This document shows, in pieces, positions 1 to 15,583 of a stretch of DNA of 64,000 nt (positions within the stretch are counted from its first letter, which is position 1; the number at the start of each line of letters is the position of its first letter). Under the pieces are notes generated by a model. The model had not been told where the DNA came from, did no database searches, and saw only the letters and a program-made list of their open reading frames with translations. This DNA comes from an uncultured Planctomycetia bacterium (GTDB lineage: Bacteria > Planctomycetota > MHYJ01 > WSZJ01), in contig CAZPWT010000045.1 in NCBI GenBank assembly GCA_964590435.1, positions 31,027-95,026 on the forward strand. Reading direction: 5' to 3'. The translations under genes and the position numbers were made by a program.

Positions 1-194
1 GCCGCGAGCACGGCCTTGAGGTTTTCGAGGACGCGGCGGGTCTGGACGCCGGCGTCGCCCGCGACCATCTGGCCTGTCGCCGGGTCGAGCGGGATCTGGC
101 CCGAGGCGAAAACCCAGCCGTCCATCACGACGGCCTGCGAATACGGCCCGATCGCCGCGGGGGCGCCGGTCGTGCTCACGGTCTTGCGGTTCAT
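1..194 (-). CDS. ridA: RidA/YjgF/UK114 family enamine/imine deaminase (3' end runs off the window)
   Basis: Manual translation from ATG 194: MNRKTVSTTGAPAAIGPYSQAVMDGWVFASGQIPLDPATGQMV; AIGPYSQA and SGQIPLDP are family motifs; ATGA overlap with the aroC stop; not in ORF track. Confidence 0.9.
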   Translation of the reverse strand, partial: MNRKTVSTTGAPAAIGPYSQAVVMDGWVFASGQIPLDPATGQMVAGDAGVQTRRVLENLKAVLA

Positions 195-1270
195 TTCGTG
201 TTCTCCACGGCCGCGCGCAGCTTCGCGTCCGCCAGGACGCAGGCCACGCAGGCCTCGACGATCGGCACGGCGCGCGGGACGACGCACGGGTCGTGGCGCC
301 CCTTCGTCTCGACGACGGCCGGCTTCATCGTCGCGAGGTTGACGGTGTCCTGCTTGCGGGGAAGCGAGCTGGTCGGCTTGAACGCGACGCGGGCGACGAG
401 GGGCATCCCGGTGGAGATGCCGCCCAGGATGCCTCCGGCGTTGTTGGTGCGCGTCGTGATGTGCCCGGCGTGGTCCACGTCGAACGCGTCGTTGTGCTCG
501 GAGCCCTTCATGCGCGCCGCCCGGAAACCGGCGCCGAATTCGACGCCGCGGGAAGCGGGGATGGACATGAGGGCGCGGGCGAGGTCGGACTCGAGCCCGT
601 CGGCTCCGGGGCCACCCCACCCGGCGGGGAGTCCCTCCACGCGGACTTCGACGACGCCGCCGACGGAGTCGCCGTCGGTGCGGGCCCGGGTGATGGCGTG
701 CTCCATCAGCTCGGCCGTCTTGGCGTCCGCGCAGCGCACGGGGTTTCCCTCCGCCTTCGCGATCTGGCCGAACGCGATCTCGTGCGGCACCTCGATCCCG
801 GCGATCTCCACGACGTGCGCGGCGATTCTCACGCCGGGAAGCATCTGCCGCGCGATCGCCCCCGCGGCCACGAGCGGCGCGGTCGTCCGCGCCGAGAACG
901 GCCCGCCGCCGCGGTGGTCCCGCGCGCTCCCCCACTTGGCCCACGCCGTGAAGTCCGCGTGCCCGGGCCGCGGCAGGTCCTTCGTCGCCTCGTAGGGCCT
1001 CGAATCGACGTCCGTGTTCCGGATCAGGATCGTCAGCGGTGCGCCCGTCGCCGCGCCGTGCATCACCCCCGAGAGAAACTCCGGCTCGTCCTCTTCCTTC
1101 CGCTGCGTCGTCACCTTCGACTGCCCCGGCCGCCGCCGCGCCAGCTCATGACGCATTGCGTCAAGATCCAGTTTAAGACCCGCAGGCACGCCTTCCACCA
1201 CCGCGCCCACGCCGGGGCCGTGGCTTTCGCCGAACAAGGTCACGCGAAAAAGCGTTCCCAGCGTGCTCAA
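191..1270 (-). CDS. aroC: Chorismate synthase
   Basis: GESHG, RRRPGQS, RPGHAD, FSARTTA, KPTSS, GRHDPCV motifs. Confidence 0.97.
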   Translation of the reverse strand: MSTLGTLFRVTLFGESHGPGVGAVVEGVPAGLKLDLDAMRHELARRRPGQSKVTTQRKEEDEPEFLSGVMHGAATGAPLTILIRNTDVDSRPYEATKDLPRPGHADFTAWAKWGSARDHRGGGPFSARTTAPLVAAGAIARQMLPGVRIAAHVVEIAGIEVPHEIAFGQIAKAEGNPVRCADAKTAELMEHAITRARTDGDSVGGVVEVRVEGLPAGWGGPGADGLESDLARALMSIPASRGVEFGAGFRAARMKGSEHNDAFDVDHAGHITTRTNNAGGILGGISTGMPLVARVAFKPTSSLPRKQDTVNLATMKPAVVETKGRHDPCVVPRAVPIVEACVACVLADAKLRAAVENTK

Positions 1271-2133
1271 GGGCGCCCCTCCTCGATGAGCCGGCGAAGC
1301 GCCTTCTCGTTCCCCTTGCGGAGGAGCACGGCGACCTTCGACAGGCTGCGCGCCATTCTGTCGGCTTCGCGGGCAATGTTGAAGCGGTTCGTGAGAAGAA
1401 TATCCAGGCCCATGGCCGGGGGCTGGGCAGCGACGCGCGTGGCGGAGCGGAAGGAGCCGCCGACCAGGCCGTCCCTGGTGGCCATGCCTTGGACAAGGAG
1501 CAGGGCAAGCACGTAGGGAAGGTGGGAAGTGAACGCGACGAGCCGGTCGTGCTTTTCCGGGGAGAGCGGACAGGGCGACGCCCCGAGCGCGTAGACGAGA
1601 TTAACCACGCTCAAGAGGTCTTTCATTCGCCGCGACCCGAGGACCCAGTTCGTCAACCTCGATCCGGTGAACAGGTTCGGGTCCGCCCCGTCGATCCCCG
1701 CGCGCTCCGTGCCGGCCATGGGATGCCCGGGAACGAATCGTTTTGCGCCGCGGTACGCGGCCGCGATCTCGCGCTTCGTCGAGCCCACGTCCGTGATGAT
1801 CGCGTCGGGTTTTGCCCACCGCAGGACCTGCGGCGCCATCCGGATGATCTGCCGCGCCGGGGCCGCGAGGATCACCAGTCCGGCCTCGCCGATGGACTTC
1901 ATCGTGCCCGTCTCGTGGCAGGCCTTTCGGGCCAGGGCCCGGCGCAGCGTTTTCAGGTCCGTGTCGATCCCGATGACGCGCGGGGACAGGCGCCGCTTGA
2001 TCAACGCCATCCCGATCGAGCCGCCGATCTGCCCGAGGCCGACGATCGCCACCGTGACGCGGCCCATGTCCGCGCGCCAGCGCGCGGCCCATTCGCGCCA
2101 AGGGACCTGCCAGGGCGGCTTCTCGCGCTTCAT
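1267..2133 (-). CDS. tyrA: Prephenate/arogenate dehydrogenase (start 2133 via ATGA overlap, alternative Met at 2067)
   Basis: Rossmann GLGQIGGS, DVGSTK, GHPMAGTE, HD..VAFTSHLP motifs. Confidence 0.9.
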   Translation of the reverse strand: MKREKPPWQVPWREWAARWRADMGRVTVAIVGLGQIGGSIGMALIKRRLSPRVIGIDTDLKTLRRALARKACHETGTMKSIGEAGLVILAAPARQIIRMAPQVLRWAKPDAIITDVGSTKREIAAAYRGAKRFVPGHPMAGTERAGIDGADPNLFTGSRLTNWVLGSRRMKDLLSVVNLVYALGASPCPLSPEKHDRLVAFTSHLPYVLALLLVQGMATRDGLVGGSFRSATRVAAQPPAMGLDILLTNRFNIAREADRMARSLSKVAVLLRKGNEKALRRLIEEGRP

Positions 2134-2513
2134 TTCACGTACGTCATCTCGCCGCCGCCCCAGGACCAGTTCTCCTTCGGGATCTCGACCAGGCTGATCA
2201 CGAGGTCTTCTCTCTTCACCCCCGCTTCCTTCTCCAGCAGCTCCGCCATCTTTGCGTACAGCGCCCGTTTCAGTTCGATCGAGCGCCCCGCGTTCATCGT
2301 CACCTGGATCACCACGATCCCGTCGGACTTCGGCATCCCCATGTACGACGGCGGATGCACCAGCGTTCCTGCCGCGTGCTCCGTGATCAGGTGGAACTTC
2401 CCCTCCGCCGGCGCGTTCACCGCTTCGACCAAGGCCTTGTGCACGGCGTCGCTGATCGCTTTCGCGACCGCCGGCGACCGCCCGGCCGCCATCGAGATCC
2501 TCACGAGCGGCAT
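2130..2513 (-). CDS. 4-oxalocrotonate tautomerase-family protein
   Basis: Catalytic-type N-terminal Pro (MPLVRI), GRS..K..LY and ENWSWGGG motifs. Confidence 0.85.
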   Translation of the reverse strand: MPLVRISMAAGRSPAVAKAISDAVHKALVEAVNAPAEGKFHLITEHAAGTLVHPPSYMGMPKSDGIVVIQVTMNAGRSIELKRALYAKMAELLEKEAGVKREDLVISLVEIPKENWSWGGGEMTYVK

Positions 2514-2529
2514 CCTGCTTCTCCCAATG

Positions 2530-2561
2530 AAAACGGGGAGGCCGGCGAACCGGCCTCCCCG
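2530..2561 (-). terminator. Probable intrinsic terminator after the selenoprotein gene
   Basis: Perfect 12-bp stem CGGGGAGGCCGG-UUCG-CCGGCCUCCCCG followed by UUUU on the minus strand; U-tract is short. Confidence 0.6.
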
Positions 2562-2579
2562 GACCGAATTGCGCTTCCT

Positions 2580-3584
2580 CTACTTCTTGTCCCCGCCGCC
2601 CTTCAGCTTGTCCAGCGTCGCGTGGTGCTCGTCGAAGAACTTCTTCGCGTTCGGGTTGTCGCCGAACTTGTCCTCCATCACCTTCAGCGCCGCCTCGTAC
2701 TTCGCCGCGTCGTTCCCTTCCTCGGCCGCTTCCATGATGAAGATGTAGAACGGCTGGAAGTAGTCGCTTTCCTCGCCCGGCTCGTGGCCGGCCTTCTGCA
2801 TGTCGAGGAACTTCTTCCCCGCCGCCGCCTGGGCCTTCTTGATCTTCGCCTTGTCGTCCGGGCCCAGCCCGTTCACGTCCTTCCCGAACTGCATCATCAC
2901 GTCCTTCATCTCCAGGTCGACGATCAGCCCGGAGAGCTTCGTCTTCTCGTCGTCCGTCAGGTCCTTCATTTTCTCGAGCGCCGCCTTCGCGTCGGCCGCC
3001 TTCAGGTTGCCGAGCTCGGCATCCTTGAAGAGCACTTCCTTGGCCGCCGCCGCGTCGCCGCCGGCTGCCTTGGCGCGGAGGTCTGCGTAGGACTGGGCGG
3101 TCCCGAGCGTTTCGCCGAAGCCCTCGGCGGAGCGCTGGCCCTCGTGCTTGGCGAGGACGTTGCCGTCCGAGTCCATCACGATCAGGTAGGGGAAGCCGCC
3201 GCCGCCCTTTTCACCGAGCAGCTCCTGGTCGGCGTCGCCGTCGACGTGCGAGGTCACGTTCAGGTACAGCACGACTTTCCCCGCAAAATCACCGAACTCG
3301 TCCTTGGAGAGCGTACCGCTCTCGAGCGATTTGCAGGGGGGTCAGGGCGAATACGAGCGGGAGAAGTACGCGAAGATCAGCTTCTTGTCCTTCTTGGCCT
3401 GCTCCTTCGCCTTGGCGTAGTCGGTCACCCAGGGGAACTTGCTGACCCACGGTTCGGCAAGCTTGTCGGCGCGCTGCTTCTTGAGCTGGTCCTGCGACGG
3501 CGGGCCCGCGAGGGCGATCGTCGGCGCGAGGAAGAGCGCAAGCGCGGCGAGAGGAAGGCATCTCACGCTCACGGTCGTCTCCAT
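2580..3584 (-). CDS. Exported thioredoxin-fold selenoprotein (UPPC motif) with helical C-terminal domain; start uncertain (ATG 3584 or GTG 3566)
   Basis: ORFs 3342..3653 and 2580..3272 are in frame and separated only by TGA at 3342-3344; read-through gives FAYFSRSYSP-U-PPCKSLESGTLSKDEFGDFAGKVVLYLNVTSHVDG...GFPYL (Trx fold with cis-Pro motif); signal peptide present. Confidence 0.88.
3307..3323 (-). promoter_or_regulatory. Bacterial SECIS-like hairpin
   Basis: GAGAGC-GGUAC-GCUCUC; apical loop starts with G, 24 nt 3' of the UGA. Confidence 0.75.
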
Positions 3585-3683
3585 CGTTGGGGAGGGTTCC
3601 GGCGAAGGCGGGAGCGTCGGGGCTCCCTGGCGGCCTGCATCGGAAGGTGCCACTGTAAACGCAAGACACGCATCGGATAATCC

Positions 3684-4733
3684 CTAAATGCTCCTCCCGA
3701 TGCACCGCGCGATCGCGGAGACTTCCTTCATGAGGACGTCGAACTGGTCGGGGTGAAGGGACTGCGCGCCGTCGCACTTGGCGACCTCGGGGCGCGGGTG
3801 AACCTCGATGATGAGCCCGTCGGCGCCGGCGGCGATCGCCGCCTTGGCGAGCGGGCCGACGAGGTCGCGGTCCCCGGCCGCGTGCGAGGGATCGCAGACG
3901 ATCGGCAGGTGCGAGAGTTTCTTCACGACCGGCACGGCGCTGACGTCGTAGGTGTTGCGCGTGTACTTCTCGAACGTCCGGATGCCGCGCTCGCAGAGGA
4001 TGACGTTGTAGTTGCCCTTGGAGAGGATGTACTCGGCGGACAGCAGCAGTTCCTCGAGCGTCGACATCATCCCGCGCTTGAGGAGCACCGGCTTGCCGGC
4101 CTTGCCGACTTCCTCGAGCAGGTTGAAGTTCTGCATGTTGCGCGCGCCGATCTGCAGGATGTCGGCGTACTCCATCACGGCCGGGATGTCCTGGACCGAC
4201 AGCACTTCCGTCACGACCGCCATGTCGTTCTCGTCGGCCGCCTCGCGCAGGATCTCGAGCCCCGGCTTTCCAAGCCCCTGGAACGCGTACGGGCTCGTCC
4301 GCGGCTTGAACGCCCCGCCGCGCAGGATCGTCGCGCCGGCCGCCTTCACCCGCTTCGCCGCCTCCCGCACCTGCGCCCGGTCCTCGACCGCGCACGGCCC
4401 GGCCATCACCGTCACCTGCCGCCCGCCGATCCGCCGCCCGCGGACCTCGACGACCGTGTCCTCCTGCTTGAACTCGCGCGACGCCAGCTTGTACGGCTTC
4501 AGGATCGGGATCACCCGCTCCACGCCCGACAGCGACTCGAACGCCGCCGAGTCCACCTTGCGGTCGCTTCCGATGATCCCGATCACCGTCCGTTCCTCGC
4601 CGCTCGAGATGTGCGGCTTGAACCCCAACGACTCGATCTGCTGCAGCACGGCGCCCGTCTCGCGGGCGCTGGCGCTCGACTTCATCACGACGATCATGGC
4701 GGTATCGCTTTCGGACTTCGGGGGAGGGCTCAT
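3684..4733 (-). CDS. aroF: DAHP synthase type I-beta with N-terminal regulatory (ACT-like) domain; alternative start ATG 4697
   Basis: AGPCAVE, RGGAFKPRTSPYAFQGLG, IGARNMQNF, LKRG, ERGIRTFE, DPSHAAG motifs. Confidence 0.95.
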   Translation of the reverse strand: MSPPPKSESDTAMIVVMKSSASARETGAVLQQIESLGFKPHISSGEERTVIGIIGSDRKVDSAAFESLSGVERVIPILKPYKLASREFKQEDTVVEVRGRRIGGRQVTVMAGPCAVEDRAQVREAAKRVKAAGATILRGGAFKPRTSPYAFQGLGKPGLEILREAADENDMAVVTEVLSVQDIPAVMEYADILQIGARNMQNFNLLEEVGKAGKPVLLKRGMMSTLEELLLSAEYILSKGNYNVILCERGIRTFEKYTRNTYDVSAVPVVKKLSHLPIVCDPSHAAGDRDLVGPLAKAAIAAGADGLIIEVHPRPEVAKCDGAQSLHPDQFDVLMKEVSAIARCIGRSI

Positions 4734-4938
4734 GGGTCACCTGTAAGGGGAAGGGTTTTTCCGGCGCCGTCCCGCGGCCGCGGCGTCAGGACGCGCCGGG
4801 CCGGACTCGCGGGGGCGGGGCCGGGGGGATATCGAAGCGCATTGTGGCGTGCGGTGCGGGACCGCGTCTTGTGCAGAGTGCCGCGGATTCCCGGTTCGAT
4901 CCTGCCGAACGATTCGAACACGCTGTTCGGCGCGGCCT

Positions 4939-5042
4939 GGCAGTCGGGAGATGGGAGACGGGAGACGGGAGTTTCGTTCGACGCGGCCGCAACCCGCACG
5001 ATGGCGTGACTCCTGACTCCCGTCTCCCGACTCCCGTCGCCG
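4939..5042. repeat. Inverted pair of heptamer tandem arrays (GGGAGAC-type)
   Basis: GGCAGTC GGGAGAT GGGAGAC GGGAGAC GGGAGTT, 34-nt spacer, then GACTCCT GACTCCC GTCTCCC GACTCCC GTCGCCG. Confidence 0.8.
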
Positions 5043-5085
5043 TCCGGCCGATTGAGGCCGGTCACCGGGAATGCGCCCTGAGACC

Positions 5086-5457
5086 TCATGCCCGGCCTCC
5101 CGACGCGAGGTCCGGCCGCAGCTCCGCCGCGCGGCCGAGGTACGCATGCCGGATCTCCGCGGCCCCGAGGTCCGTCTCCACGAGGATCATGATGCGCACG
5201 ATCCGCGGCAGCGCCCCGTCCACGTCCAGCTCCGGCGAGCACATCAGCGGCACGCGCGTCCAGCCGATCTCGCGCGCCGCCGTCGCGGGGAACGCCGCCG
5301 TGAGGTCCGTCGTCGCGGTGAACAGGATCATCGAGATCCGGTCCGGCTCGATCGCGTTCGCCTTCGCCATGACTTGCAGCAGCTCCCGCGTCGCGCCGAG
5401 GATCGCCTCGCGCGTGTTCTCCTCCACGCCCGTCGCCCCCCTAACGCCTCGCAGCAT
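5086..5457 (-). CDS. aroH: Chorismate mutase, AroH class
   Basis: RGVRGAT, FTATTDLTAAFPA, VPLMC..E..V.G.LPR.VR, YLGRA..LRPDL motifs. Confidence 0.95.
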   Translation of the reverse strand: MLRGVRGATGVEENTREAILGATRELLQVMAKANAIEPDRISMILFTATTDLTAAFPATAAREIGWTRVPLMCSPELDVDGALPRIVRIMILVETDLGAAEIRHAYLGRAAELRPDLASGGRA

Positions 5458-6215
5458 CGAGCGACCTCCTCATCGTCTCCAGGAACCGCCGCACCTCGCC
5501 CGGCGCCCGCTTCTTCCCGGCCCCCCGGATCACCTTCACCAGCGCGCTTCCCACGATCACCCCGTCGGCGAACCGCCCGACCGCGGCCGCGTGCTGCGGG
5601 GTCGCGATCCCGAACCCGACGCAGACCGGCCGCGGCGTCGCGCGCCTCACCCGCTTCACGAACGCCTCCAGCCCCGGCGGCAGGTCCTTGCGCGCGCCCG
5701 TGACGCCCGCGACCGACACGAGGTACACGAACCCGCCGCGGCCCCGGACGAGCGTCTTCATCCGCGCCGGCGTCGTCGTCGGTGCCACCATCGGGATGAG
5801 GTCGAGCGGAGAAGCGCCCTTCAGGTGGAGCTTCGCCGCTTCCGGGGTGAGATCCGGGATGATCGCCCCCGCGAACCCCGCGGCGGCGGCACGGCGCAGG
5901 AAGGCATTTGCGCCGGGCGCGAGCACGACGTTCGCGTAGGTCATCAGCACCTTCACAGGCCCCCGGAGATCGCGGCTCCACGCCAACGCCTTCTCCGGCG
6001 TCGCACCGGCGACGAGCGCCTCGTGCGAAGCGTGCTGGATCGCCGGACCGTCGGCGATCGGGTCGCTGAAGGGGATGCCGATCTCGACGAGGTCGGCGCC
6101 GGCGTCCGCCGCGGCCTGCAGGAGGGAGCGAAACGTCGCGGTATCCGGGAAGCCGGCGCAGAGGTATGGCATGAGCGCGGGGCGGTTCGCGGCGCGCAGG
6201 GAGCGGAAGCGCTGA

Positions 6216-6229
<14 letters not shown>
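5441..6229 (-). CDS. trpA: Tryptophan synthase alpha subunit
   Basis: [40 protein letters not shown] motifs. Confidence 0.97.
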
Positions 6230-7387
<1,158 letters not shown>

Positions 7388-7391
<4 letters not shown>

Positions 7392-7981
7392 CGGCGGGCC
7401 TCCTCGACGAAGCGGCGGATGAGGGCGTGGTCCTTCTTCCCGGGGCGGACTTCGACGCCGCTGGCGACGTCGACGGCGAAGGGCCGCGCGACGCGGACCG
7501 CCTCGCGGACGTTCGACGGTTTCAGGCCCCCCGCGAGGATCACGCGGGCGAACTTCGCGGCGCGCCGCGCGATCGTCCAGTCGAACGTGCGCCCCGAGCC
7601 GCCGCCGGTATCGAGGTGCACGAGGTCCGCGCCCCAGCGGCGGACCTCGTCGACGACCGACGCGTCGGCGACCTTGAACACTTTCACCGACGGGAACGGG
7701 ATCGCGCGCGCATCCGCCTTCGACTCTTCGCCGTGCAGCTGCACGTACGTCAACCCCGCCGCGCGGGCCGTCAGCGCGATGTCGGACGGAAGGGCGTTCG
7801 CGAAGACGCCGACCTTGTGCAGGAAAGCCGGGAGTTTCCGCACGATGCGGCGGACGGCGTCCACCGTCATGCGCCGCGGCGACTCGGCGAACACGAACCC
7901 GACCGCGTCGGTGCCCGCGTCAGCCGCGGCGACCGCGTCGCGCAGGTTCGTGAGCCCGCAGATTTTCACGCGCACGCTCAC
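7388..7981 (-). CDS. trpF: Phosphoribosylanthranilate isomerase
   Basis: [34 protein letters not shown] motifs. Confidence 0.96.
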
Positions 7982-8745
7982 AGCAGTTTCAGCTCCCGGA
8001 TTCGGCCGCGCGGGTCGGCCTGTTTGACGACCTCCTCGCCGACGAGAAGCGCCCGCGCCCCCGCCGCCTTCGCCTTCATCGCGTCTTCCCGAGACTTGAG
8101 CCCGCTCTCCGCCACGCGGATCGCCGCGCGCACCTTCGGCAGCACGCGCTCCATCATCGTCAGGTCCATCGCCAGCGTCTGGAGGTTCCGGTTGTTCACG
8201 CCGACGATCTCCGCATCGCCGACGAATTTCAGTTCCGCCTCCTCGTGCACCTCGACCAGCGCCGCCAATCCCGCATCGCGCGCAACCGCCCGCAGCTCCG
8301 CCGTCCGCTTCCCCAGCGCCGCCACGATCAGCAGCACGGCGTCCGCGCCCGCCGCGCGCGCCTCCCAGACTTGGTACTCGTCCACGACGAAGTCCTTGCG
8401 GATCACCGGCAACGTGCAGGCCGCCCGCGCCGCGCGCAGGTCGTCGAGGGATCCCTTGAAGAAGTCGCGCTCCGTCAGCACCGACAGGCAGTCTGCGCCG
8501 GCCGCCGCGTAGCTTCGTGCGCGTTCCGCCGGGTCGAGGTTCACCGCAATGTCGCCTTTCGACGGCGTCGCCCGCTTGATCTCCGCGATCAGCCCGAGCC
8601 CCTTCGCCGACGCCAGCGCCCCGCGGAAATCGCGCGCCGGGGGCTGGTCCTTCGCCCGCGCCTTCACGTCGCGCAGCGGCGCCGCCGCGCTCTCCTCCGC
8701 GAGCCGCTTCCGCCTCTGCGCCAGGATCCGCTCTAGCATGCGCAC
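7978..8745 (-). CDS. trpC: Indole-3-glycerol phosphate synthase
   Basis: IAEIKRATPSKG, SVLTE..FFKGS, RKDFVVD, VEVH, GVNNRNL, AESG motifs. Confidence 0.96.
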   Translation of the reverse strand: MRMLERILAQRRKRLAEESAAAPLRDVKARAKDQPPARDFRGALASAKGLGLIAEIKRATPSKGDIAVNLDPAERARSYAAAGADCLSVLTERDFFKGSLDDLRAARAACTLPVIRKDFVVDEYQVWEARAAGADAVLLIVAALGKRTAELRAVARDAGLAALVEVHEEAELKFVGDAEIVGVNNRNLQTLAMDLTMMERVLPKVRAAIRVAESGLKSREDAMKAKAAGARALLVGEEVVKQADPRGRIRELKLL

Positions 8746-9737
8746 GCCTCCTTCAGCGCGTTCGTGGCAAATCCGGATTTCACGGACTCGCGGGCGCGCT
8801 CCAGGCCTTCGCAGGGAGAAGCGGCTTTGCCGGTCGTCCAGATCGCGAGGGCGGCGTTGAGGAGGATGGCGTCGGCGACGGGGCTGGGCTCGCCGCCCAG
8901 GGCGCGCCGGATGGCCGCGGCGTTCGCGGCGGCGTCGCCGCCCGCGAGCGCGGCGTTCGGGACGGCCGCGAGACCGAGCCCGCGCGGGTCGAGCTCGTCG
9001 CGGCGGACGCCGCCCCCCTCGACGACGGCGACGCGCGCCGGGCCTTCGAGCGTCGCCTCGTCGGCGCCCCCCGCTCCGTGGACGACGACCGCGCGCTTCA
9101 CGCCGAGCGAAGCGAAGGCGTTTGCGACGAGGTCCACGAACCGCTCCTCCGGGACGCCGACGAGCTGGAACGGCGGGAGGGCCGGGTTGGCGAGCGGGCC
9201 GATGAGGTTGAAGATGGTGCGGACGCCGAGCTCCCTGCGGACCGGCGCGGCGTGCTTCATCGCCGGGTGGAACGCCGGGGCGAACATGAAACCGAAGTTT
9301 TTATTTCGAATGGACGCCGACACGTCCGCGGCGGGTCGCTCGACCGGCACGCCCAGCGCGGCCAGCACGTCCGCGCTGCCGACTCTTCCCGAAGCCGACC
9401 GGTTCCCGTGCTTCGCCACCGGCACGCCCGCGCCGGCGACGACGAACGCGGCCGCGGTCGAGATGTTGACCATCGCCAGCCCGTCGCCGCCGGTGCCGCA
9501 GGTGTCGATGGCGGGCGTGGCGCCAATGTCGACGCGCACGGCGTTTTCGCGCACGGCCTCGACCGCCCCGGCCAGCTCTTCCCCCGTCTCCCCCTTCGCA
9601 CGCAGCCCCATCAACAGCGCCCCCAGTTGCGCGGGACTCACCTCACCGCGCAGGACGCGCAGAAACACCGCTCGCGCTTCGTCTCGCGTGAGACTCTCGC
9701 GTTTCGCCAGTTTTTCGAGCGCGTTCTGGAGGGTCAT
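8733..9737 (-). CDS. trpD: Anthranilate phosphoribosyltransferase
   Basis: [39 protein letters not shown] motifs. Confidence 0.97.
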
Positions 9738-10312
9738 GTGTTCGGGGGCCGTTGTTCGAGAAAGTTTCGCAGGATCGTCTTGCCCGGGACGGTCAGGATG
9801 GATTCCGGGTGGAACTGCACGCCTTCGAGCGGGAATGCCTTGTGACGAAGGCCCATGATTTCCCCCTCGGCGGTGTGCGCCACCACTTTGAGCGTCGGCG
9901 GGAGCGTTTCCTCCCGGACGACGAGGGAGTGGTAGCGCGTGGCCGGGAACGGGTTTGGCACCCCCTTGTAGAGCCCCTTGTTGTCGTGATAGACGAGCGA
10001 GACTTTCCCGTGCATCTGCCGCTCCGCGCGGTTCACGACGCCCCCGAACACCTCGCCGATCGCCTGGTGGCCGAGGCAGACCCCGAGCACCGGGATTTTC
10101 CCCGAGAAGTGCCCGATGAACTCCTTCGACACGCCGGCCTCCGCCGGGTTTCCCGGCCCCGGGCTGATCACGAGGTGCGAAGGGTTCATCGCCTTCGCCT
10201 GTTCGAGCGTGATCTCGTCATTCCGCCGGACGACAACCTCAGCGCCGAGTTCCCCGAAATACTGCACCAGGTTGAACGTGAAGCTGTCGTAGTTATCGAT
10301 GAGGAGCAGCAT
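9734..10312 (-). CDS. trpG: Anthranilate synthase component II (glutamine amidotransferase)
   Basis: [32 protein letters not shown] motifs. Confidence 0.96.
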
Positions 10313-10326
10313 GTGTTCTCTCTGTC

Positions 10327-10361
10327 TTTTTATTTTTCGTTTTTACTTTTTAGTTTTTCGT
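10327..10361. repeat. T-rich degenerate heptamer array between trpE and trpG
   Basis: TTTTTAT TTTTCGT TTTTACT TTTTAGT TTTTCGT. Confidence 0.65.
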
Positions 10362-10381
10362 TTCCTGGCCGTTCTTCTTCC

Positions 10382-11785
10382 CTACAACTCCCCCGCCGTC
10401 TCCACCGCCTTCTTCAAAGCCGCGACTTTGTTCATGCACTCCTGATATTCCCCCTCCGGCGTGCTCCCCAGCGTGATCCCCGCCCCGGCCTGCAGGTGCG
10501 CCACGCCGCCCTGCACCACGATCGTCCTGATCGCGATGCACGTGTCCATCTGCCCGTTCGCGCCGAAATACCCCACCGCGCCCGCATACGGCCCCCGCCG
10601 CGACGCTTCCAGCGACTCGATGATCTGCATCGACCGGATCTTCGGCGCCCCAGTCACCGTCCCGGCGGGAAACGCCGCGGCGAACAGGTCGAACTGGTCC
10701 TTGTCCTTGCCCAGCGTCCCGCGGACCTCGGAAACGAGGTGCATCACGTGCGAATACCGCTCGACCGCGAACAGGTCCGTCGGCTTCACACTCCCGTACT
10801 CGCAGACCCTCCCGAGATCGTTCCTCGCCAGGTCCACCAGCATCACGTGCTCGCTCCGCTCCTTCTCGTCCACCAGCAGCTCCTGCTCCAGCTTCGCGTC
10901 CTCCGCTTCCGACCCGCCGCGAGGCCGCGTCCCCGCGATCGGCCGCACGATCGCCGTGCGCCCGTCGAGCTTCACCATCACTTCGGGACTCGACCCGACG
11001 AGCTGGAACCCGTCGAAGTCGAAATAGAACATGTACGGGCTCGGGTTCTGGATGCGCAGCGCCCGGTACACCTGGAACGGCGCCACCCCGATCCCCCCGC
11101 TCCACCGCTGCGACAGCACCACCTGGTACGCATTCCCCGCCCGGATGTGCTCCTTCGCCGCCTCCACCGACGCCATGTACTTCTCCCGCGTCGTGTCGCT
11201 CTCCAGCGGCGAGAGCGTTTTTTCCGCATGGGGAAGCGCCGGCAGCGCGGCCCGCAGCCGCTCCGCAACCGCGTCCAGCCGCTTCTGCCCTGCCGCCGCG
11301 TCCTCCGCCAGCGCGACGAGCGTCATCCGGCGCCGGATGTGGTCGAACATCACGAGCGCGTCGGTCAGGAAGAACACGCCGTCGGGAAGCCCGAGCCTGT
11401 CAGGCAGCGTCGCCGGGATCTTCTCGAGGTTGCGGACGAAATCGTAGCCGAGGTAGCCCACGAGCCCGCCGAGCAGCGACGGCGCGCCGGCGTCGGCGGG
11501 GATCTCCTGCGCCCGCAGCACTTCGCGCAGCGCCGCCAGCGGCCCGCCTGCGCCGAACGCGACGGAGCGCTTCTGCCCCCCCGCCTCGATCTCCAGCGCC
11601 TTCGCGCCGACGGTGACGCGGGCGGCGGTGCCGACGCCGATGAACGAGAACCGGCCGAGTTTTTCCGCGCCCTCGACGGACTCGAGGAGGAAGCGCGCGC
11701 CGGCCGGGCGCAGTTTGAGGAAGGCGCTGACGGGCGTCTCGAGGTCGGCGGGGATATCGCGGGTGACGACGGTTTTTCGGCTCAT
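10382..11785 (-). CDS. trpE: Anthranilate synthase component I (start reassigned to ATG 11785, SD GGAGA)
   Basis: DLETPVSAF, LLES, RFSFIG, QNPSPYM, GSSPE, RPIAGT, EHVMLVDLARND, FPAGTVTGAPK motifs; the upstream part of the tracked ORF is the attenuator. Confidence 0.96.
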   Translation of the reverse strand: MSRKTVVTRDIPADLETPVSAFLKLRPAGARFLLESVEGAEKLGRFSFIGVGTAARVTVGAKALEIEAGGQKRSVAFGAGGPLAALREVLRAQEIPADAGAPSLLGGLVGYLGYDFVRNLEKIPATLPDRLGLPDGVFFLTDALVMFDHIRRRMTLVALAEDAAAGQKRLDAVAERLRAALPALPHAEKTLSPLESDTTREKYMASVEAAKEHIRAGNAYQVVLSQRWSGGIGVAPFQVYRALRIQNPSPYMFYFDFDGFQLVGSSPEVMVKLDGRTAIVRPIAGTRPRGGSEAEDAKLEQELLVDEKERSEHVMLVDLARNDLGRVCEYGSVKPTDLFAVERYSHVMHLVSEVRGTLGKDKDQFDLFAAAFPAGTVTGAPKIRSMQIIESLEASRRGPYAGAVGYFGANGQMDTCIAIRTIVVQGGVAHLQAGAGITLGSTPEGEYQECMNKVAALKKAVETAGEL

Positions 11786-11802
11786 GGCGGTCTCCGTGGA
11801 CG

Positions 11803-11835
11803 AAAAAAAAAGCCCTGTCCATTTCGGGACAGGGC
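11803..11835 (-). terminator. Attenuator (intrinsic) terminator upstream of trpE
   Basis: GCCCUGUCC-CGAAAU-GGACAGGGC followed by U9, 17 nt before the trpE ATG. Confidence 0.9.
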
Positions 11836-11858
11836 TCGTTGCGGTGTGCTTGGAAGGG

Positions 11859-11945
11859 CTAGCCAGGCAGGCCCGCAAAGGCCTCCGTCCCGTACGGATA
11901 CGGGCGCCAGCTCCAGCTCGGGGTGACGGGGGCGATGCGGTTCAT
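11859..11945 (-). CDS. trpL: Attenuator leader peptide, 28 aa MNRIAPVTPSWSWRPYPYGTEAFAGLPG
   Basis: Short ORF between promoter and terminator with Trp codons at 11913-15 and 11907-09; overlapping segments can pair alternately with the terminator 5' arm. Confidence 0.8.
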   Translation of the reverse strand: MNRIAPVTPSWSWRPYPYGTEAFAGLPG

Positions 11946-11954
11946 GGGGGGCGG

Positions 11955-11983
11955 ACGATAGAGGGGAGGTTGGGGGAAGTCAA
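11955..11983 (-). promoter_or_regulatory. Sigma70-type promoter of the trp operon
   Basis: TTGACT-17 nt-TATCGT; -10 box ends 9 nt before the leader ATG. Confidence 0.75.
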
Positions 11984-12157
11984 CAGGAAAATTCGGAAGG
12001 GAGGTTCGAGGGTGCGGGGGCGGTGGGGAGGCAGGGAATCCTGGCGCGCGCGGGGAATTCAACAGCAGAGACAAAAATTGCGATTCCGTAAATGCTTGTC
12101 ATTAAATGGTTTAGGAACGCCTGTCGGGGTTTCCAACAGAAAATAAACGACGGATGT

Positions 12158-12186
12158 TTGACTTTCCTACATTTGTATTTTATAAA
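12158..12186 (+). promoter_or_regulatory. Sigma70-type promoter of the L,D-transpeptidase gene
   Basis: TTGACT-17 nt-TATAAA in an AT-rich divergent region; SD GGAGAGG near 12229. Confidence 0.8.
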
Positions 12187-12239
12187 GTATAAAGTCTGAG
12201 GGGACACTGCAACCACGCACGGACCATCGGAGAGGACCC

Positions 12240-13457
12240 ATGCTCAAAGCCGTCGCCTGCGCGGTCGTCATCACGACCGTCACCGTCATCGCTTACTTCC
12301 GCGGCTGGCTCCCCGTTCATTCCCGCGGCGCCGCCCCGGCTGACCGCACTTCCTTCGCCCCCGCCCCCCCGGGAACCGGCGTCCCCGCGAACGTCCCCGG
12401 GACGCCCCCCTCGACCGGCAACCCCCCGCCCGTGAAACAGGACCCCAAGGGCGGACTCGCGCTCTTCCAGCTCGGTGACTACGAGGCGGCCATCCCCGAA
12501 CTCGCCAAGGACCTCGAGAAGAACAAGGTTTCCTCTTCCCTGCACGCCGCCCTCGCGACCTCCTACGAGAAGACCGGCCGCACCGCGGAAGCGCTGGCGC
12601 AGTGGGCGAAGCTGGCCGAGCTGTGCCCGAAGGCGCCGGAACGGGCGAGCGCGCTGGCCCGGGTCTACATGGGCGCGGAAGGCGGCGCGCGGGTCGACGC
12701 CGGGATGAAGCTCCTGCGCGAACACGCGGAGTCGGCCGAGGCGGGCTCGACCGTCCTCGGGATCGCGGACGCGGCGGACAAGAACGGCCGCCCGCTGGAC
12801 GCCTGGGAAGCATGCTCGCTCGCCATCAACCTCGGCATCGGCAACGAGCAGGCGCTCGTGACGCGGTGCACCGCCTACGCCGACCTGCTCGCCTTCGGCG
12901 CCAAGGACGTCCCCGAGCTCGGCACGGTCTACGTCGTCAAGTCCGGCGACCTCGTCGTGACGATCGCCAAGAAGCACAAGGTCGACTCGGGCGTGATCGG
13001 CCGCGTCAACAAGCTCCAGAACGGCATGATCCGCGCCGGCCAGCGCCTCAAGGTCCTGACCGCCAAGCCCTCCATCGAGGTCTCGATCAAGAAGACCTGG
13101 CTCCGCCTCTGGTACAACGGCAAGTTCCTCGCCCGCCAATTCCCCGTCTGCACCGGGAACCTCGACGAGAGCCCGACGCCCATCGGCGAGTTCTCCGTTT
13201 CCACCCGCCTCGTCAATCCCGAGTGGACCCGCGCCGGCCAGCAGGCCGTCTCCGCCGACGACCCCAACAACCCGCTCGGCACCCGCTGGCTGGGCTTCGC
13301 CGAGCCCGGCTACACCAGCTACGGGATCCACGGCACCCGCAAGCCCGAGACCATCGGCCAGCACGCTTCCAACGGCTGCGTCCGCATGCGCAACGAGAAC
13401 GTCGAGGAACTGTTCGACCTCGTCCCGTCCGGGACCAAGATCCAGATCCACGAATAG
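12240..13457 (+). CDS. L,D-transpeptidase family protein (N-terminal anchor, TPR-like helices, LysM, YkuD domain)
   Basis: YVVKSGD..V.IAKK LysM; PTPIGEF, NPLGTRW, YGIHGT and SNGCVRM (His/Cys catalytic motifs). Confidence 0.92.
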   Translation: MLKAVACAVVITTVTVIAYFRGWLPVHSRGAAPADRTSFAPAPPGTGVPANVPGTPPSTGNPPPVKQDPKGGLALFQLGDYEAAIPELAKDLEKNKVSSSLHAALATSYEKTGRTAEALAQWAKLAELCPKAPERASALARVYMGAEGGARVDAGMKLLREHAESAEAGSTVLGIADAADKNGRPLDAWEACSLAINLGIGNEQALVTRCTAYADLLAFGAKDVPELGTVYVVKSGDLVVTIAKKHKVDSGVIGRVNKLQNGMIRAGQRLKVLTAKPSIEVSIKKTWLRLWYNGKFLARQFPVCTGNLDESPTPIGEFSVSTRLVNPEWTRAGQQAVSADDPNNPLGTRWLGFAEPGYTSYGIHGTRKPETIGQHASNGCVRMRNENVEELFDLVPSGTKIQIHE

Positions 13458-13520: not shown

Positions 13521-14921
13521 TCAGGCGCGAAGCAGGTCCGCGACCGCCGCTTCCATCGCCGCGCGCCCTTCCCCGCCGAACCACACCTCCCACTGCCGGC
13601 GGGCCTGCGCGGCGAACATGCCGATGCCGGAAATGGCGCGGCAACCGCGAGCGGCGGCGTCGCGGAGGAGGCGGGTCTGGCGCGGGGTGTAGACGCAGTC
13701 GTAGACGGCGCAGCCGGCGGGAAGGTCGGCGGCGGCGAAGGGCGTCGCGTCGGCGTCGGGCTCCATGCCGACGGAGGTCGTGTTGACGAGCAGGTCGAAG
13801 GAGATGCCGCGCGCGCCGGACCAGGGGACGGGGGTGGCGTCGAACTCGCGGGCGAGCTCCGCGGTTTTCACGGCGTTGCGGCCGGCGAGGAAGACGACGT
13901 TGGGGCCGGCCAGCGCCGCGAGGATCGCCCGGGCCGCGCCGCCGGCGCCGAGCACCACGGCGCGCAGGTTCCGGGCGGGGCGCCCGAGCCCCGCCTCGAG
14001 CGACTCCAGGAACCCCGCCGCGTCCGTGTTGGTCGCCTGCCAGGCCCCGTCCCGGCGCGTGAGCGTGTTGGCCGCCCCGGCGCGCTTCGCCACGGCGTCG
14101 GCCCGGGCCCCGCGGCACGCCTCCACCTTGTGCGGGATCGTCACGCTCGCCCCCTCGACGCCGAGGACGTCGAGAGACGCGAAGAGGTCTCCCTCGCGGA
14201 CGAGGGCCGGGACGTAGACGGCGTCGATCCCGGCGACCGCGAACGCGCGGTTGAACAGCCCGGGCGACTTTGAGTGCTTCACGGGATCGCCGGCGACGCA
14301 GAAGGCGCGGGTTGAGGGGCCGATCCGCTCGTAGCGGAACGTGTCCGCGAGCTCGGCCTCTCCCCACTGCCCCGGCGCGGTCGGATCGCCGCCGGCGGGG
14401 ACGGCGTAGGTCCACGGCGCGCCGAGGCGGGCGCCGAGGATGCGGGCGGCGGCGCCGAGTTCCCCCATCGCAATGACCACGCCGCGCGGGCCCAGCTCCC
14501 GCTGCAGGTCGACCAGCCCGCGCAACTCCGCCGCGGTCCGAGGCGTCGCGGCGATCTTCACGACGTCCGCCTTCTCGCCGAGCATCCGCTGCGCCAGCCC
14601 GCGCAGGTCCGCCGGCACCCCCTCGAAGTCGTGCCGCGACAGGATCAGCTTCACGCCCGCAGGCCGCGCCGGCCTCCAACCGCTCCGCGCCTCGACGTCC
14701 ACCGCCCACGCCCCCGACGCCGCCGCGCGCTCCAGCATCCCGCGCCGCTCTTCCTCGCTCCCCGCGAACGCCCCGCCCTCCCAGGTCGCCCGGCACGTCG
14801 CGATCGCTTCGCACCCCGCCGGGACCGCTCGCCACGCCGATCCGCGGTCCAGCCGCACCTCCACCAGCCGCCGCCCGCCGATCGCGGCTCCCCCCGACAG
14901 CGAGACGCACACCCGGCTCAC
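13521..14921 (-). CDS. aroDE: Bifunctional type I 3-dehydroquinate dehydratase / shikimate dehydrogenase (start GTG 14921 overlapping dedA stop)
   Basis: VEVRLD, VDVE, SRHDF, VVKIA, IAMGELG (AroD); HSKSPGLFN, SVTIPHK, GAANT, NTDAAG, LGAGGAAR, DCVYTP (AroE). Confidence 0.9.
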   Translation of the reverse strand: MSRVCVSLSGGAAIGGRRLVEVRLDRGSAWRAVPAGCEAIATCRATWEGGAFAGSEEERRGMLERAAASGAWAVDVEARSGWRPARPAGVKLILSRHDFEGVPADLRGLAQRMLGEKADVVKIAATPRTAAELRGLVDLQRELGPRGVVIAMGELGAAARILGARLGAPWTYAVPAGGDPTAPGQWGEAELADTFRYERIGPSTRAFCVAGDPVKHSKSPGLFNRAFAVAGIDAVYVPALVREGDLFASLDVLGVEGASVTIPHKVEACRGARADAVAKRAGAANTLTRRDGAWQATNTDAAGFLESLEAGLGRPARNLRAVVLGAGGAARAILAALAGPNVVFLAGRNAVKTAELAREFDATPVPWSGARGISFDLLVNTTSVGMEPDADATPFAAADLPAGCAVYDCVYTPRQTRLLRDAAARGCRAISGIGMFAAQARRQWEVWFGGEGRAAMEAAVADLLRA

Positions 14922-15583
14922 GGCTGCGCCCCCGCCTTCGCCGCCTCCTCCGCCGCCAGCCGCTTCGCCTCCATCCGCTCCTGGTGCGCCTTCCACCAGT
15001 GCCACGCGATCGTCACCAGCACGATCACGGCGATCCCGCCGAAGATCCAGTGGTTCGCGTTCTTCACCTTCGCCATCGCCTCGTCGAAGTTCTTCCCGAA
15101 GTGATACGCGATGTAGATCGAGGTCGGGCCGCTGATGAGCGTCCCCGCGAGGTCGAGCAGCACGAACCTGAGCGGGTTCATCTTCATGGTGCCCGCCGTG
15201 AAGTACACCGGCATGCGGATGCCGGCGAAGAACCGGGCGAAGAAGACGGTCTTGTTGCCGTGCTTGTCGAAGAAGTGCTGGACCTTGGCGAGGCGGGGGG
15301 CGGGAAAGAGCCACTTGCCGAACCGGGTGGCGAGGAGGGAGGAGCCCCATCGGCGAGCGATGCAGAACATGGTGAGGTCGCCGCCGATAATGGCGGCGAC
15401 GCAAAGGAGCATGATGAGCCAGAGGTTGACCTTCCCCTTGTAGGCGGCGTAGCCGGCGAGGAGGAGGGTGATTTCCTCGGGGATGGGGACGCCGAGGCCG
15501 CAGGCATAGAGGACGCCGACGATGACGACGTAGGCGTGGCTGTCGATCTGCGTGCGCAGGGCGAAGGTAATCTGGTCGATCAT
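14918..15583 (-). CDS. DedA family membrane protein
   Basis: GLGVPIPEE..LLLAG, GD...F, FFARFFAGIR motifs. Confidence 0.92.
   Translation of the reverse strand: MIDQITFALRTQIDSHAYVVIVGVLYACGLGVPIPEEITLLLAGYAAYKGKVNLWLIMLLCVAAIIGGDLTMFCIARRWGSSLLATRFGKWLFPAPRLAKVQHFFDKHGNKTVFFARFFAGIRMPVYFTAGTMKMNPLRFVLLDLAGTLISGPTSIYIAYHFGKNFDEAMAKVKNANHWIFGGIAVIVLVTIAWHWWKAHQERMEAKRLAAEEAAKAGAQP

Follow-up and report, generated by a model that had tools for sequence, protein, structure and literature searches.

Leader-peptide attenuation of the tryptophan operon is known from Escherichia coli trpL (the Yanofsky model; RF00513), where a short open reading frame (ORF) with Trp codons, exclusive 1:2, 2:3 and 3:4 pairings, and an intrinsic terminator precede trpE, and where a stalled ribosome masks segment 1 but not segment 2. 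These features recur in an element upstream of trpE in a 64,000-nucleotide stretch of DNA from an uncultured Planctomycetia bacterium (assembly GCA_964590435.1, contig CAZPWT010000045.1, positions 31,027 to 95,026), which is referred to below as the window. Our analysis indicates that this element is very probably a ribosome-mediated (leader-peptide) attenuator of the classical trpL type that controls transcription of the tryptophan operon. In a full-text literature search, no account was found of trp genes under leader-peptide attenuation in Planctomycetes.

Leaders with little or no 5' untranslated region (UTR) provide the second point of comparison. In Sinorhizobium meliloti, the transcript of trpL (rnTrpL), upstream of trpE(G), begins with the trpL ATG and is therefore leaderless (PMC7298713). 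It is likewise a Trp attenuator, and its peptide contains WWW; however, that peptide has only 14 amino acids, the organism belongs to a different phylum, and its released RNA and peptide are known to act in trans as well. In Deinococcus deserti, transcription of the trpEGD leader begins a single nucleotide ahead of the start codon of the leader peptide (PMC4007540). This putative Trp leader peptide, also from a different phylum, sits on an essentially leaderless transcript; it is itself only a prediction and is likened to the planctomycete element by its layout. Leaderless ORFs encoding poly-Cys peptides act as attenuators in mycobacteria (bioRxiv 10.1101/834739). A near-leaderless trpL is already known, and the element in the window is compared with these systems on that basis.

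The leader ORF of the window starts 160 nt upstream of the trpE ATG and encodes the peptide MNRIAPVTPSWSWRPYPYGTEAFAGLPG, which contains W11 and W13. Coordinates of all features are collected in Table 1. The promoter-like sequence TTGACT-17-TATCGT is the sole sigma-70-like match in 2 kb, where 0.2 matches are expected from the consensus scan. The nine nucleotides between TATCGT and the ATG, CCGCCCCCC, are pyrimidine-rich (C-rich) and lack a Shine-Dalgarno sequence; trpE, in contrast, is preceded by one, GGAGA. The terminator hairpin is GAGCCCUGUCC-CGAAAU-GGACAGGGCUU, followed by the remainder of a U9 run; its stem comprises 11 pairs, the last two of which use the first U residues. An earlier reading of this DNA, here called the original prediction, had described a promoter, an ATG 9 nt later without a Shine-Dalgarno sequence, the peptide, and the U9 terminator, and all of them are present on the minus strand at the positions it gave. 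Transcription would begin at the leader ATG or no more than about 3 nt from it. Scanning the 64-kb window for TTGAC-N16-18-TAnnnT adjoining a start codon returned only the leader site and one unrelated site, a result that is uninformative about the frequency of leaderless genes in this organism.

Relatives of the element were reached by two routes. TrpE-based scans led to five loci that contain it (L001-L004 and L081). Independently, the syntenic, divergently oriented L,D-transpeptidase gene, together with contig look-ups, led to deeper lineages (L165, L168, L171-173, L174 and L175). P0006 was left out of the leader comparison, as were L167, L170 and L176, whose loci end before the leader. In all, nine distinct sequences have the element ahead of trpE; they represent at least five deep lineages within a single Planctomycetota clade, and the identity of the neighbour protein falls to 64%. 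The closest TrpE relatives are metagenome-assembled genomes (MAGs) labelled Planctomycetota, with 87-95% identity; the next best, at ~50-54%, belong to other phyla. Besides the window, the leader peptides are MNRIAPVVPSWSWRPYTPGTEAFAGLSG (L004), MTRTASNFPSRTWRPYAYGTEASAGLPG (L001), MTRNAPFIPSWTWRPYTYGTEAFAGQPG (L002), MSRNASLRPSWSWRPYAHGTEAFAALAG (L003), MNRIASPSWWWYPLAGTAAIAAMPG (L081), MNPNRIAPAYWWWYSAGTAADAAMPG (L174), MHTHIGYWWWYTAGTAADAGAPG (L175) and MTHTRISPAYWWPYSAGTGADAGLPG (L171).

The layout is retained across these lineages. TTGAC is invariant in 11/11 aligned sequences, whereas the spacer varies. The -10 hexamer appears as TATCTT, TAATCT, TAGCAT or TAGAAT in relatives, with TA...T kept and always 9-10 nt before the ATG; the intervening nucleotides are almost all C or T, and a Shine-Dalgarno sequence is absent in every lineage. 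This conserved short spacing, which the original prediction had noted in the window and which proves general, fits near-leaderless translation of the ORF. In all relatives the ORF has 23-28 codons, starts at the same place and has Trp at the same position, and its stop codon falls in the loop between segments 2 and 3; the differences in ORF length between lineages keep the reading frame. Every leader has one to three Trp codons, of which one is invariant and fixed 18 nt from segment 2; in the deeper lineages, WW or WWW ends at the W13 position. For comparison of the pairing segments, a MAFFT alignment was re-anchored at CCGCA so that segment 1 matches between sub-clades (alignment A3). Mean pairwise identity is 81-98% in the pairing segments, as compared to 30-58% in the N-terminal coding part of the peptide, the 2-3 loop, and the terminator loop.

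Three mutually exclusive pairings, the protector, the antiterminator and the terminator, are predicted in all nine sequences, with energies of -25 to -40, -29 to -39 and -20 to -30 kcal/mol, respectively. The protector has two parts. Its base helix is CCGCA(UC)/(GA)UGCGG, and its proximal helix runs, in the RNAalifold consensus, from the invariant Trp codon through the 'GU' at the start of the Tyr codon, paired with ACGGxGGCC. The pairs between segment 1b and segment 2 (G38-C66, G39-C65, C40-G64, C43-G61, G45-C59 and U46-A58) are kept in 9/9 sequences. UGCGG (11877-11873) has two possible partners, CCGCA at 11940-11936 and CCGCA at 11844-11840. When segment 2 pairs with segment 3, the antiterminator duplex comprises 17 bp with two single-base bulges and one mismatch, and it includes the 5' arm of the terminator. 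The original prediction had placed the switching strand at 11881-11891, its protector partner at 11922-11933, and its antiterminator partner at 11826-11835; these positions are right and the pairings possible, and the core of both was captured, although the CCGCA/UGCGG extension was missed.

Two measures bear on whether such an arrangement could arise by chance. In alignment A3, the protector base and terminator are 90.8% paired and the antiterminator 91.4%, versus 32-47% when the partners are slid by one to three columns. The terminator stem is 100% paired in all sequences, while its loop varies in length and sequence (32-35% identity). Because the whole layout is conserved in nine related sequences and its helices are ~91% paired, far above the slid controls, the arrangement is, as judged from sequence comparison, not due to chance. 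Covariation contributes less. Compensatory changes, which the original prediction had suggested as a check, occur at two pairs flanking the protector base (C-G/G-C and A-U/U-A); elsewhere the stems are near-invariant. Covariation is weak because segments 2-4 are almost invariant, and little variation is to be expected in a strand that has to match two partners. The case for the helices comes chiefly from conservation and energy.

The effect of ribosome position was examined by masking the ribosome footprint at each A-site position and folding transcripts cut just before the 3' arm of the terminator. Cut transcripts were used because attenuation is a kinetic decision. With the A site on the Trp codons, the full antiterminator forms in 9/9 sequences; one to five codons past the Trp codons, where the footprint lies over segment 2, it is partly or fully lost. 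With 18 nt between the invariant Trp codon and segment 2, a ribosome stalled at that codon does not reach the segment with its leading edge. The masked-footprint folds thus agree with the earlier proposal that stalling at W11 or W13 leaves segment 2 free for the antiterminator, and together with the anatomy and conservation they support a ribosome-stalling trp attenuator with the three pairings. Folding of full-length transcripts at equilibrium with the same mask almost always kept the terminator, and this model is uninformative about a kinetic switch. What the analysis shows is the elements in the sequence, how far they are conserved, how they can pair in alternative ways, and their geometry.

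These data allow us to propose how the element would operate. The ribosome would translate the 28-codon leader while RNA polymerase transcribes the downstream part. When Trp is plentiful, the ribosome would pass the Trp codons and segment 2 and reach the stop codon in the 2-3 loop, and segment 1 (CCGCAUC and the Trp-codon stretch) would capture segment 2 behind it. Segment 3 would then be free to pair with segment 4, forming the hairpin-U9 terminator, and transcription would end before trpE. When charged tRNA-Trp is scarce, the ribosome would stall with W11 or W13 in the A site; it would then cover segment 1b and the greater part of segment 1, with its leading edge short of segment 2. Segment 2 would then form 17 bp with the emerging segment 3 and sequester the terminator 5' arm, and the polymerase would read through into trpE and the genes behind it.

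Several observations weigh against this assignment. In 6/9 cut transcripts folded without a ribosome, the antiterminator already wins at equilibrium; Trp-replete termination therefore depends on kinetics and steric blocking. We infer that it relies on the protector forming first and on a terminating ribosome in the 28-nt 2-3 loop. In the simple masking model, a ribosome at the stop codon still permits the lower part of the antiterminator. L001 has a single Trp codon. Covariation is limited to the two pairs changed on both sides, the rest being invariant, and the RNAalifold covariation term is -0.18. An Rfam scan of 11000-13000 (cmscan, E <= 10) gave no family match, and Trp_leader (RF00513) was not listed; the best hit, Thr_leader, scores 21.6 bits against a gathering score of 55 and is driven by the terminator. 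Finally, where transcription starts, that the ORF is translated, and how the element responds to Trp are inferred from sequence. Set against the geometry and conservation described above, these points leave the element as real, well conserved, previously unmodelled, and a mechanistically ordinary Trp attenuator.

Table 1. Positions in the window of the leader features and of genes in the cluster behind them
Feature	Position	Strand	Basis and remarks
-35-like hexamer TTGACT	11983-11978	-	sigma-70 consensus scan
-10-like hexamer TATCGT	11960-11955	-	sigma-70 consensus scan; 17-nt spacer after TTGACT
Leader ORF (trpL-like), 28 codons + TAG	11945-11859; ATG at 11945, TAG 11861-11859	-	read from sequence
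Segment 1a CCGCAUC, protector hairpin base	11934..11940	-	pairs with (U)UGCGG of segment 2; in the minimum-free-energy fold of every lineage
Trp codon W11	11913..11915	-	in 4/5 sequences of the window's sub-clade; R in L001
Trp codon W13, invariant regulatory codon	11907..11909	-	TGG in all sequences (A3 columns 33-35); 18 nt upstream of segment 2
Segment 1b UGGCGCCCGUA, W13 codon to first two bases of Y16 codon	11899..11909	-	pairs with segment 2 in RNAalifold consensus
Segment 2 GGGACGGAGGCCUUUGCGG, switching strand	11873..11891	-	87-88% identical across lineages; pairs with segment 1 or segment 3
Segment 3 CCGCAACGAGCCCUGUCCC, antiterminator partner	11826..11844	-	97-98% identical across lineages; holds terminator 5' arm
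Intrinsic terminator	11803..11837; stem 11837-11810, U9 run ends 11803	-	terminator scan
trpE Shine-Dalgarno sequence GGAGA	11795-11791	-	read from sequence; kept in relatives
trpE, first cluster gene	10382..11785, ATG at 11785	-	ORF and Pfam match
AroH-type chorismate mutase, 123 aa	5457-5086	-	Pfam CM_1, E = 3e-43; start overlaps trpA end
DAHP synthase with ferredoxin-like (FXD) regulatory domain	4733-3684	-	Pfam
Thioredoxin-like (UxxC) ORF with in-frame TGA 3344-3342	3584-2580	-	Pfam Thioredoxin_7
Tautomerase	2513-2130	-	ORF and Pfam

As compared to E. coli trpL, the planctomycete leader has no sequence or covariance-model match. Its 28-codon ORF continues across segment 2 and ends in the 2-3 loop; the E. 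coli trpL stop codon lies between segments 1 and 2. It also differs in lacking a Shine-Dalgarno sequence, in having its ATG 9 nt after the -10 hexamer, and in its two-part protector. Another set of comparable leaders was found upstream of trpE in Woeseiaceae-like gammaproteobacterial MAGs (L014, L024, L041, L097, L098, L101 and others). In the six examined, TTGAC-17-(G/T)A(T/A)ACT ends 6-8 nt before the ATG without a Shine-Dalgarno sequence, so that these leaders, too, look leaderless. They have 20-25 codons with WWW, WSW, WFWRP or WAWSW, an ORF that runs through the antiterminator strand (…KERAAG*), and a strong terminator after it. They differ from the planctomycete leaders in their segment sequences (GGAGAGGG/CCCAUCUCC), in having no Tyr beside the Trp run, and in a TrpE that is ~50-52% identical. 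The original prediction had regarded the WxW spacing as atypical, but WSW, WFW and WAWSW all occur in these leaders; because the gammaproteobacterial trp leaders share both traits, neither the spacing nor the leaderless layout is unusual. Examples of the Woeseiaceae-like peptides are MNAQIILNWWWQPAKEGAAG, MTATRIQHWFWRPDGERAPGR and MTALRNNNWSWQLNKERAAG, and Trp-run leaders are also seen at a Gaiellales locus (MASVHGGNWWWRPERGVTR) and a Meiothermus locus (…QGWWWPG).

With the planctomycete element, the known range of leader-peptide attenuation of trp genes comes to include a clade of uncultured Planctomycetota, and the element provides a further case of a leader ORF that is apparently translated without a 5' UTR. 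No Rfam model detects it. The nine-sequence set is a ready seed alignment for annotating these genomes.

The alternative that fares best adds Tyr to the signal. Under this hypothesis, Tyr codons flanking the Trp run would also trigger read-through, such that a single near-leaderless attenuator serves an aromatic supraoperon; the ancestral regulatory block of the clade would be Y-W-W-W-Y, and attenuation would be multivalent, as in multi-amino-acid leaders. Y16, a Tyr codon right after the Trp run, is present in 9/9 sequences as UAU or UAC, and three deep lineages have a second Tyr directly before the run (YWWWY, YWWWY and YWWPY), within the range of A-site positions that permits the antiterminator. 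The upstream Tyr is, however, missing in the window's own sub-clade and in L081, and the downstream Tyr lies at the limit of this permissive range, and the antiterminator of the window sequence is only partial there (9/7/4 of 11 nt). The persistence of Y16 may also have a cause at the level of RNA. In the RNAalifold consensus fold, the U of this codon pairs with an A of segment 2 that does not vary; if the first two codon positions must be U and A, only UAU and UAC are not stop codons, and a constraint on the RNA at both bases would explain the pattern. A caveat to that explanation is that the A of the Tyr codon is invariant yet unpaired in the consensus fold. On these models, Y16 may be structural rather than sensory. 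A leader that senses Trp versus Tyr/Phe would be expected to keep Tyr and Phe codons at positions with a defined structural effect; here only Y16 is conserved.

The content of the gene cluster and a described precedent bear on the same hypothesis. The cluster includes a CM_1 chorismate mutase, a DAHP synthase and tyrA but no prephenate dehydratase, an arrangement kept in a distant lineage, and no Phe codon is conserved in the leader; both points are in its favour. On the other side, tyrA may not be co-transcribed with trpE, given the gaps of 130-350 nt and a hairpin-UUUU sequence at 2561-2534 between them. The precedent is Corynebacterium glutamicum aroR, a Phe-Tyr-Phe leader upstream of aroF that controls this DAHP synthase gene, although Tyr availability was without effect there (PMC11802643). 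The trpL and aroR leaders of that organism are, like the planctomycete element, leader-peptide attenuators of aromatic amino acid genes, but the Trp and Phe/Tyr leaders are separate and on separate operons, whereas in the planctomycete a single leader precedes both gene sets. If the hypothesis were true, one attenuator would answer to both Trp and Tyr for trpEGDCFBA - chorismate mutase - DAHP synthase - ... - tyrA - aroC. Given these observations, we consider it unlikely.

The original prediction had gone further, proposing that the leader weighs Trp against Tyr and Phe: a stall at a Trp codon would give read-through, whereas a stall at Y16, Y18 or F23 would cover segment 2 and might favour termination. 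The masked folds agree in that a ribosome whose A site is on Y18 or F23 lies over segment 2, with loss of the antiterminator, and the cluster does include enzymes of the Tyr/Phe branch. The codons themselves, however, are not maintained. One Trp codon and Y16 are kept, but the relatives have Y, P, H or A at the position of Y18 and F, S, I or D at that of F23, whose UUU falls on variable internal-loop positions of segment 2. Moreover, termination is already the default, so stalls at Y18 or F23 yield only that outcome and add no information, and the Trp codons lie upstream and are reached first. In the deeper lineages, the Tyr codons adjoin the Trp run, where an upstream Tyr would give read-through rather than termination. 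Non-conservation has already largely refuted this proposal at the sequence level, and we regard it as highly improbable. It was the only idea that would have changed the concept of attenuation, which, with the proposal unsupported, stands unchanged.

A comparably remote prospect is that the ORF is untranslated and that the conserved RNA is a ligand- or protein-binding switch (riboswitch, T-box-like or TRAP-like) acting on the same terminator. Segments 2-4 are indeed extremely conserved, and chance ORFs are common in GC-rich DNA. Against this prospect stand an ATG that keeps to 9-10 nt from the -10 element in every lineage, in-frame UGG runs (WW and WWW) at a fixed distance from segment 2, an in-frame stop that is always in the 2-3 loop, and length differences that preserve the frame. 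In addition, no Rfam riboswitch or T-box match was obtained, and the RNA has no TRAP-type (G/U)AG repeats. A TnaC-like arrest peptide, suggested by the WRP motif, was rejected, because a peptide of this kind would act with the wrong polarity for biosynthetic genes and because the motif is not kept (WWWY and WWPY in other lineages).

The genes behind the attenuator form a minus-strand cluster, assigned from ORFs and Pfam matches as trpEGDCFBA - chorismate mutase - DAHP synthase - UxxC protein - tautomerase - tyrA - aroC. The same order as far as tyrA is found in the distant locus L177 (1-9593, minus strand), whose neighbour protein is 64% identical and which ends within tyrA. In the window, where aroC follows tyrA, the cluster spans 191-11785 (minus strand) and resembles an aromatic 'supraoperon'. 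A Tyr/Phe-branch enzyme, the chorismate mutase, thus stands directly behind the trp genes under the putative Trp attenuator, as it does in L177. A separate Tyr/Phe leader was sought in the gaps that precede the DAHP synthase gene and tyrA; the chorismate mutase gene, the tautomerase gene and an inverted repeat were found instead. The repeat is long and imperfect (gggagtcgggagacgggagtcaggagtc ... actcccgtctcccgtctcccatctcccgact) and lies in the 350 nt that separate the chorismate mutase gene from the DAHP synthase gene (5085-4734, minus strand), a gap of only 163 nt in L177; a terminator scan of 5085-4734 gave no terminator-like site. At 2561-2534 (minus strand), after the UxxC gene and before tautomerase-tyrA-aroC, a 12-bp GC-rich hairpin is followed by UUUUCAUU, a possible internal terminator or attenuator of the aromatic cluster.

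Upstream of the leader, a LysM/YkuD L,D-transpeptidase gene (12240-13457) is oriented divergently, with a fused aroD-aroE gene beyond it. The DNA that separates the YkuD gene from the leader promoter includes a block rich in A and T at 12150-12215 (…TTGACTTTCCTACATTTGTATTTTATAAAGTATAAAG…), which stands out in this GC-rich genome and is kept in all relatives; it is probably the promoter or operator of the L,D-transpeptidase gene. The fused aroD-aroE ORF (13521-15404, minus strand) has 627 aa from a TTG start, as compared to 465-474 aa in orthologues. Because the orthologues are shorter, the real start is probably internal, and the long N-terminal extension is probably an artefact of ORF calling in GC-rich DNA.

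The UxxC protein of the cluster is a candidate selenoprotein, judging from a TGA at the first position of a UxxC redox motif. Its ORF begins with a signal peptide, reads ...FSRSYSP-TGA-PPCKSLE..., and has 253 more in-frame codons after the TGA; when the TGA is read as Cys, the Thioredoxin_7 match spans it with 32.2 bits against a cut-off of 27. The L177 counterpart (1567-590, minus strand) is split by gene callers into ORFs of 74 aa and 247 aa. The TGA is conserved there, as is a hairpin ~20 nt after it, which reads GAGAGCGG-UAC-GCUCUC in the window and GGAGAGCGG-UCC-GCUCUCC in L177.

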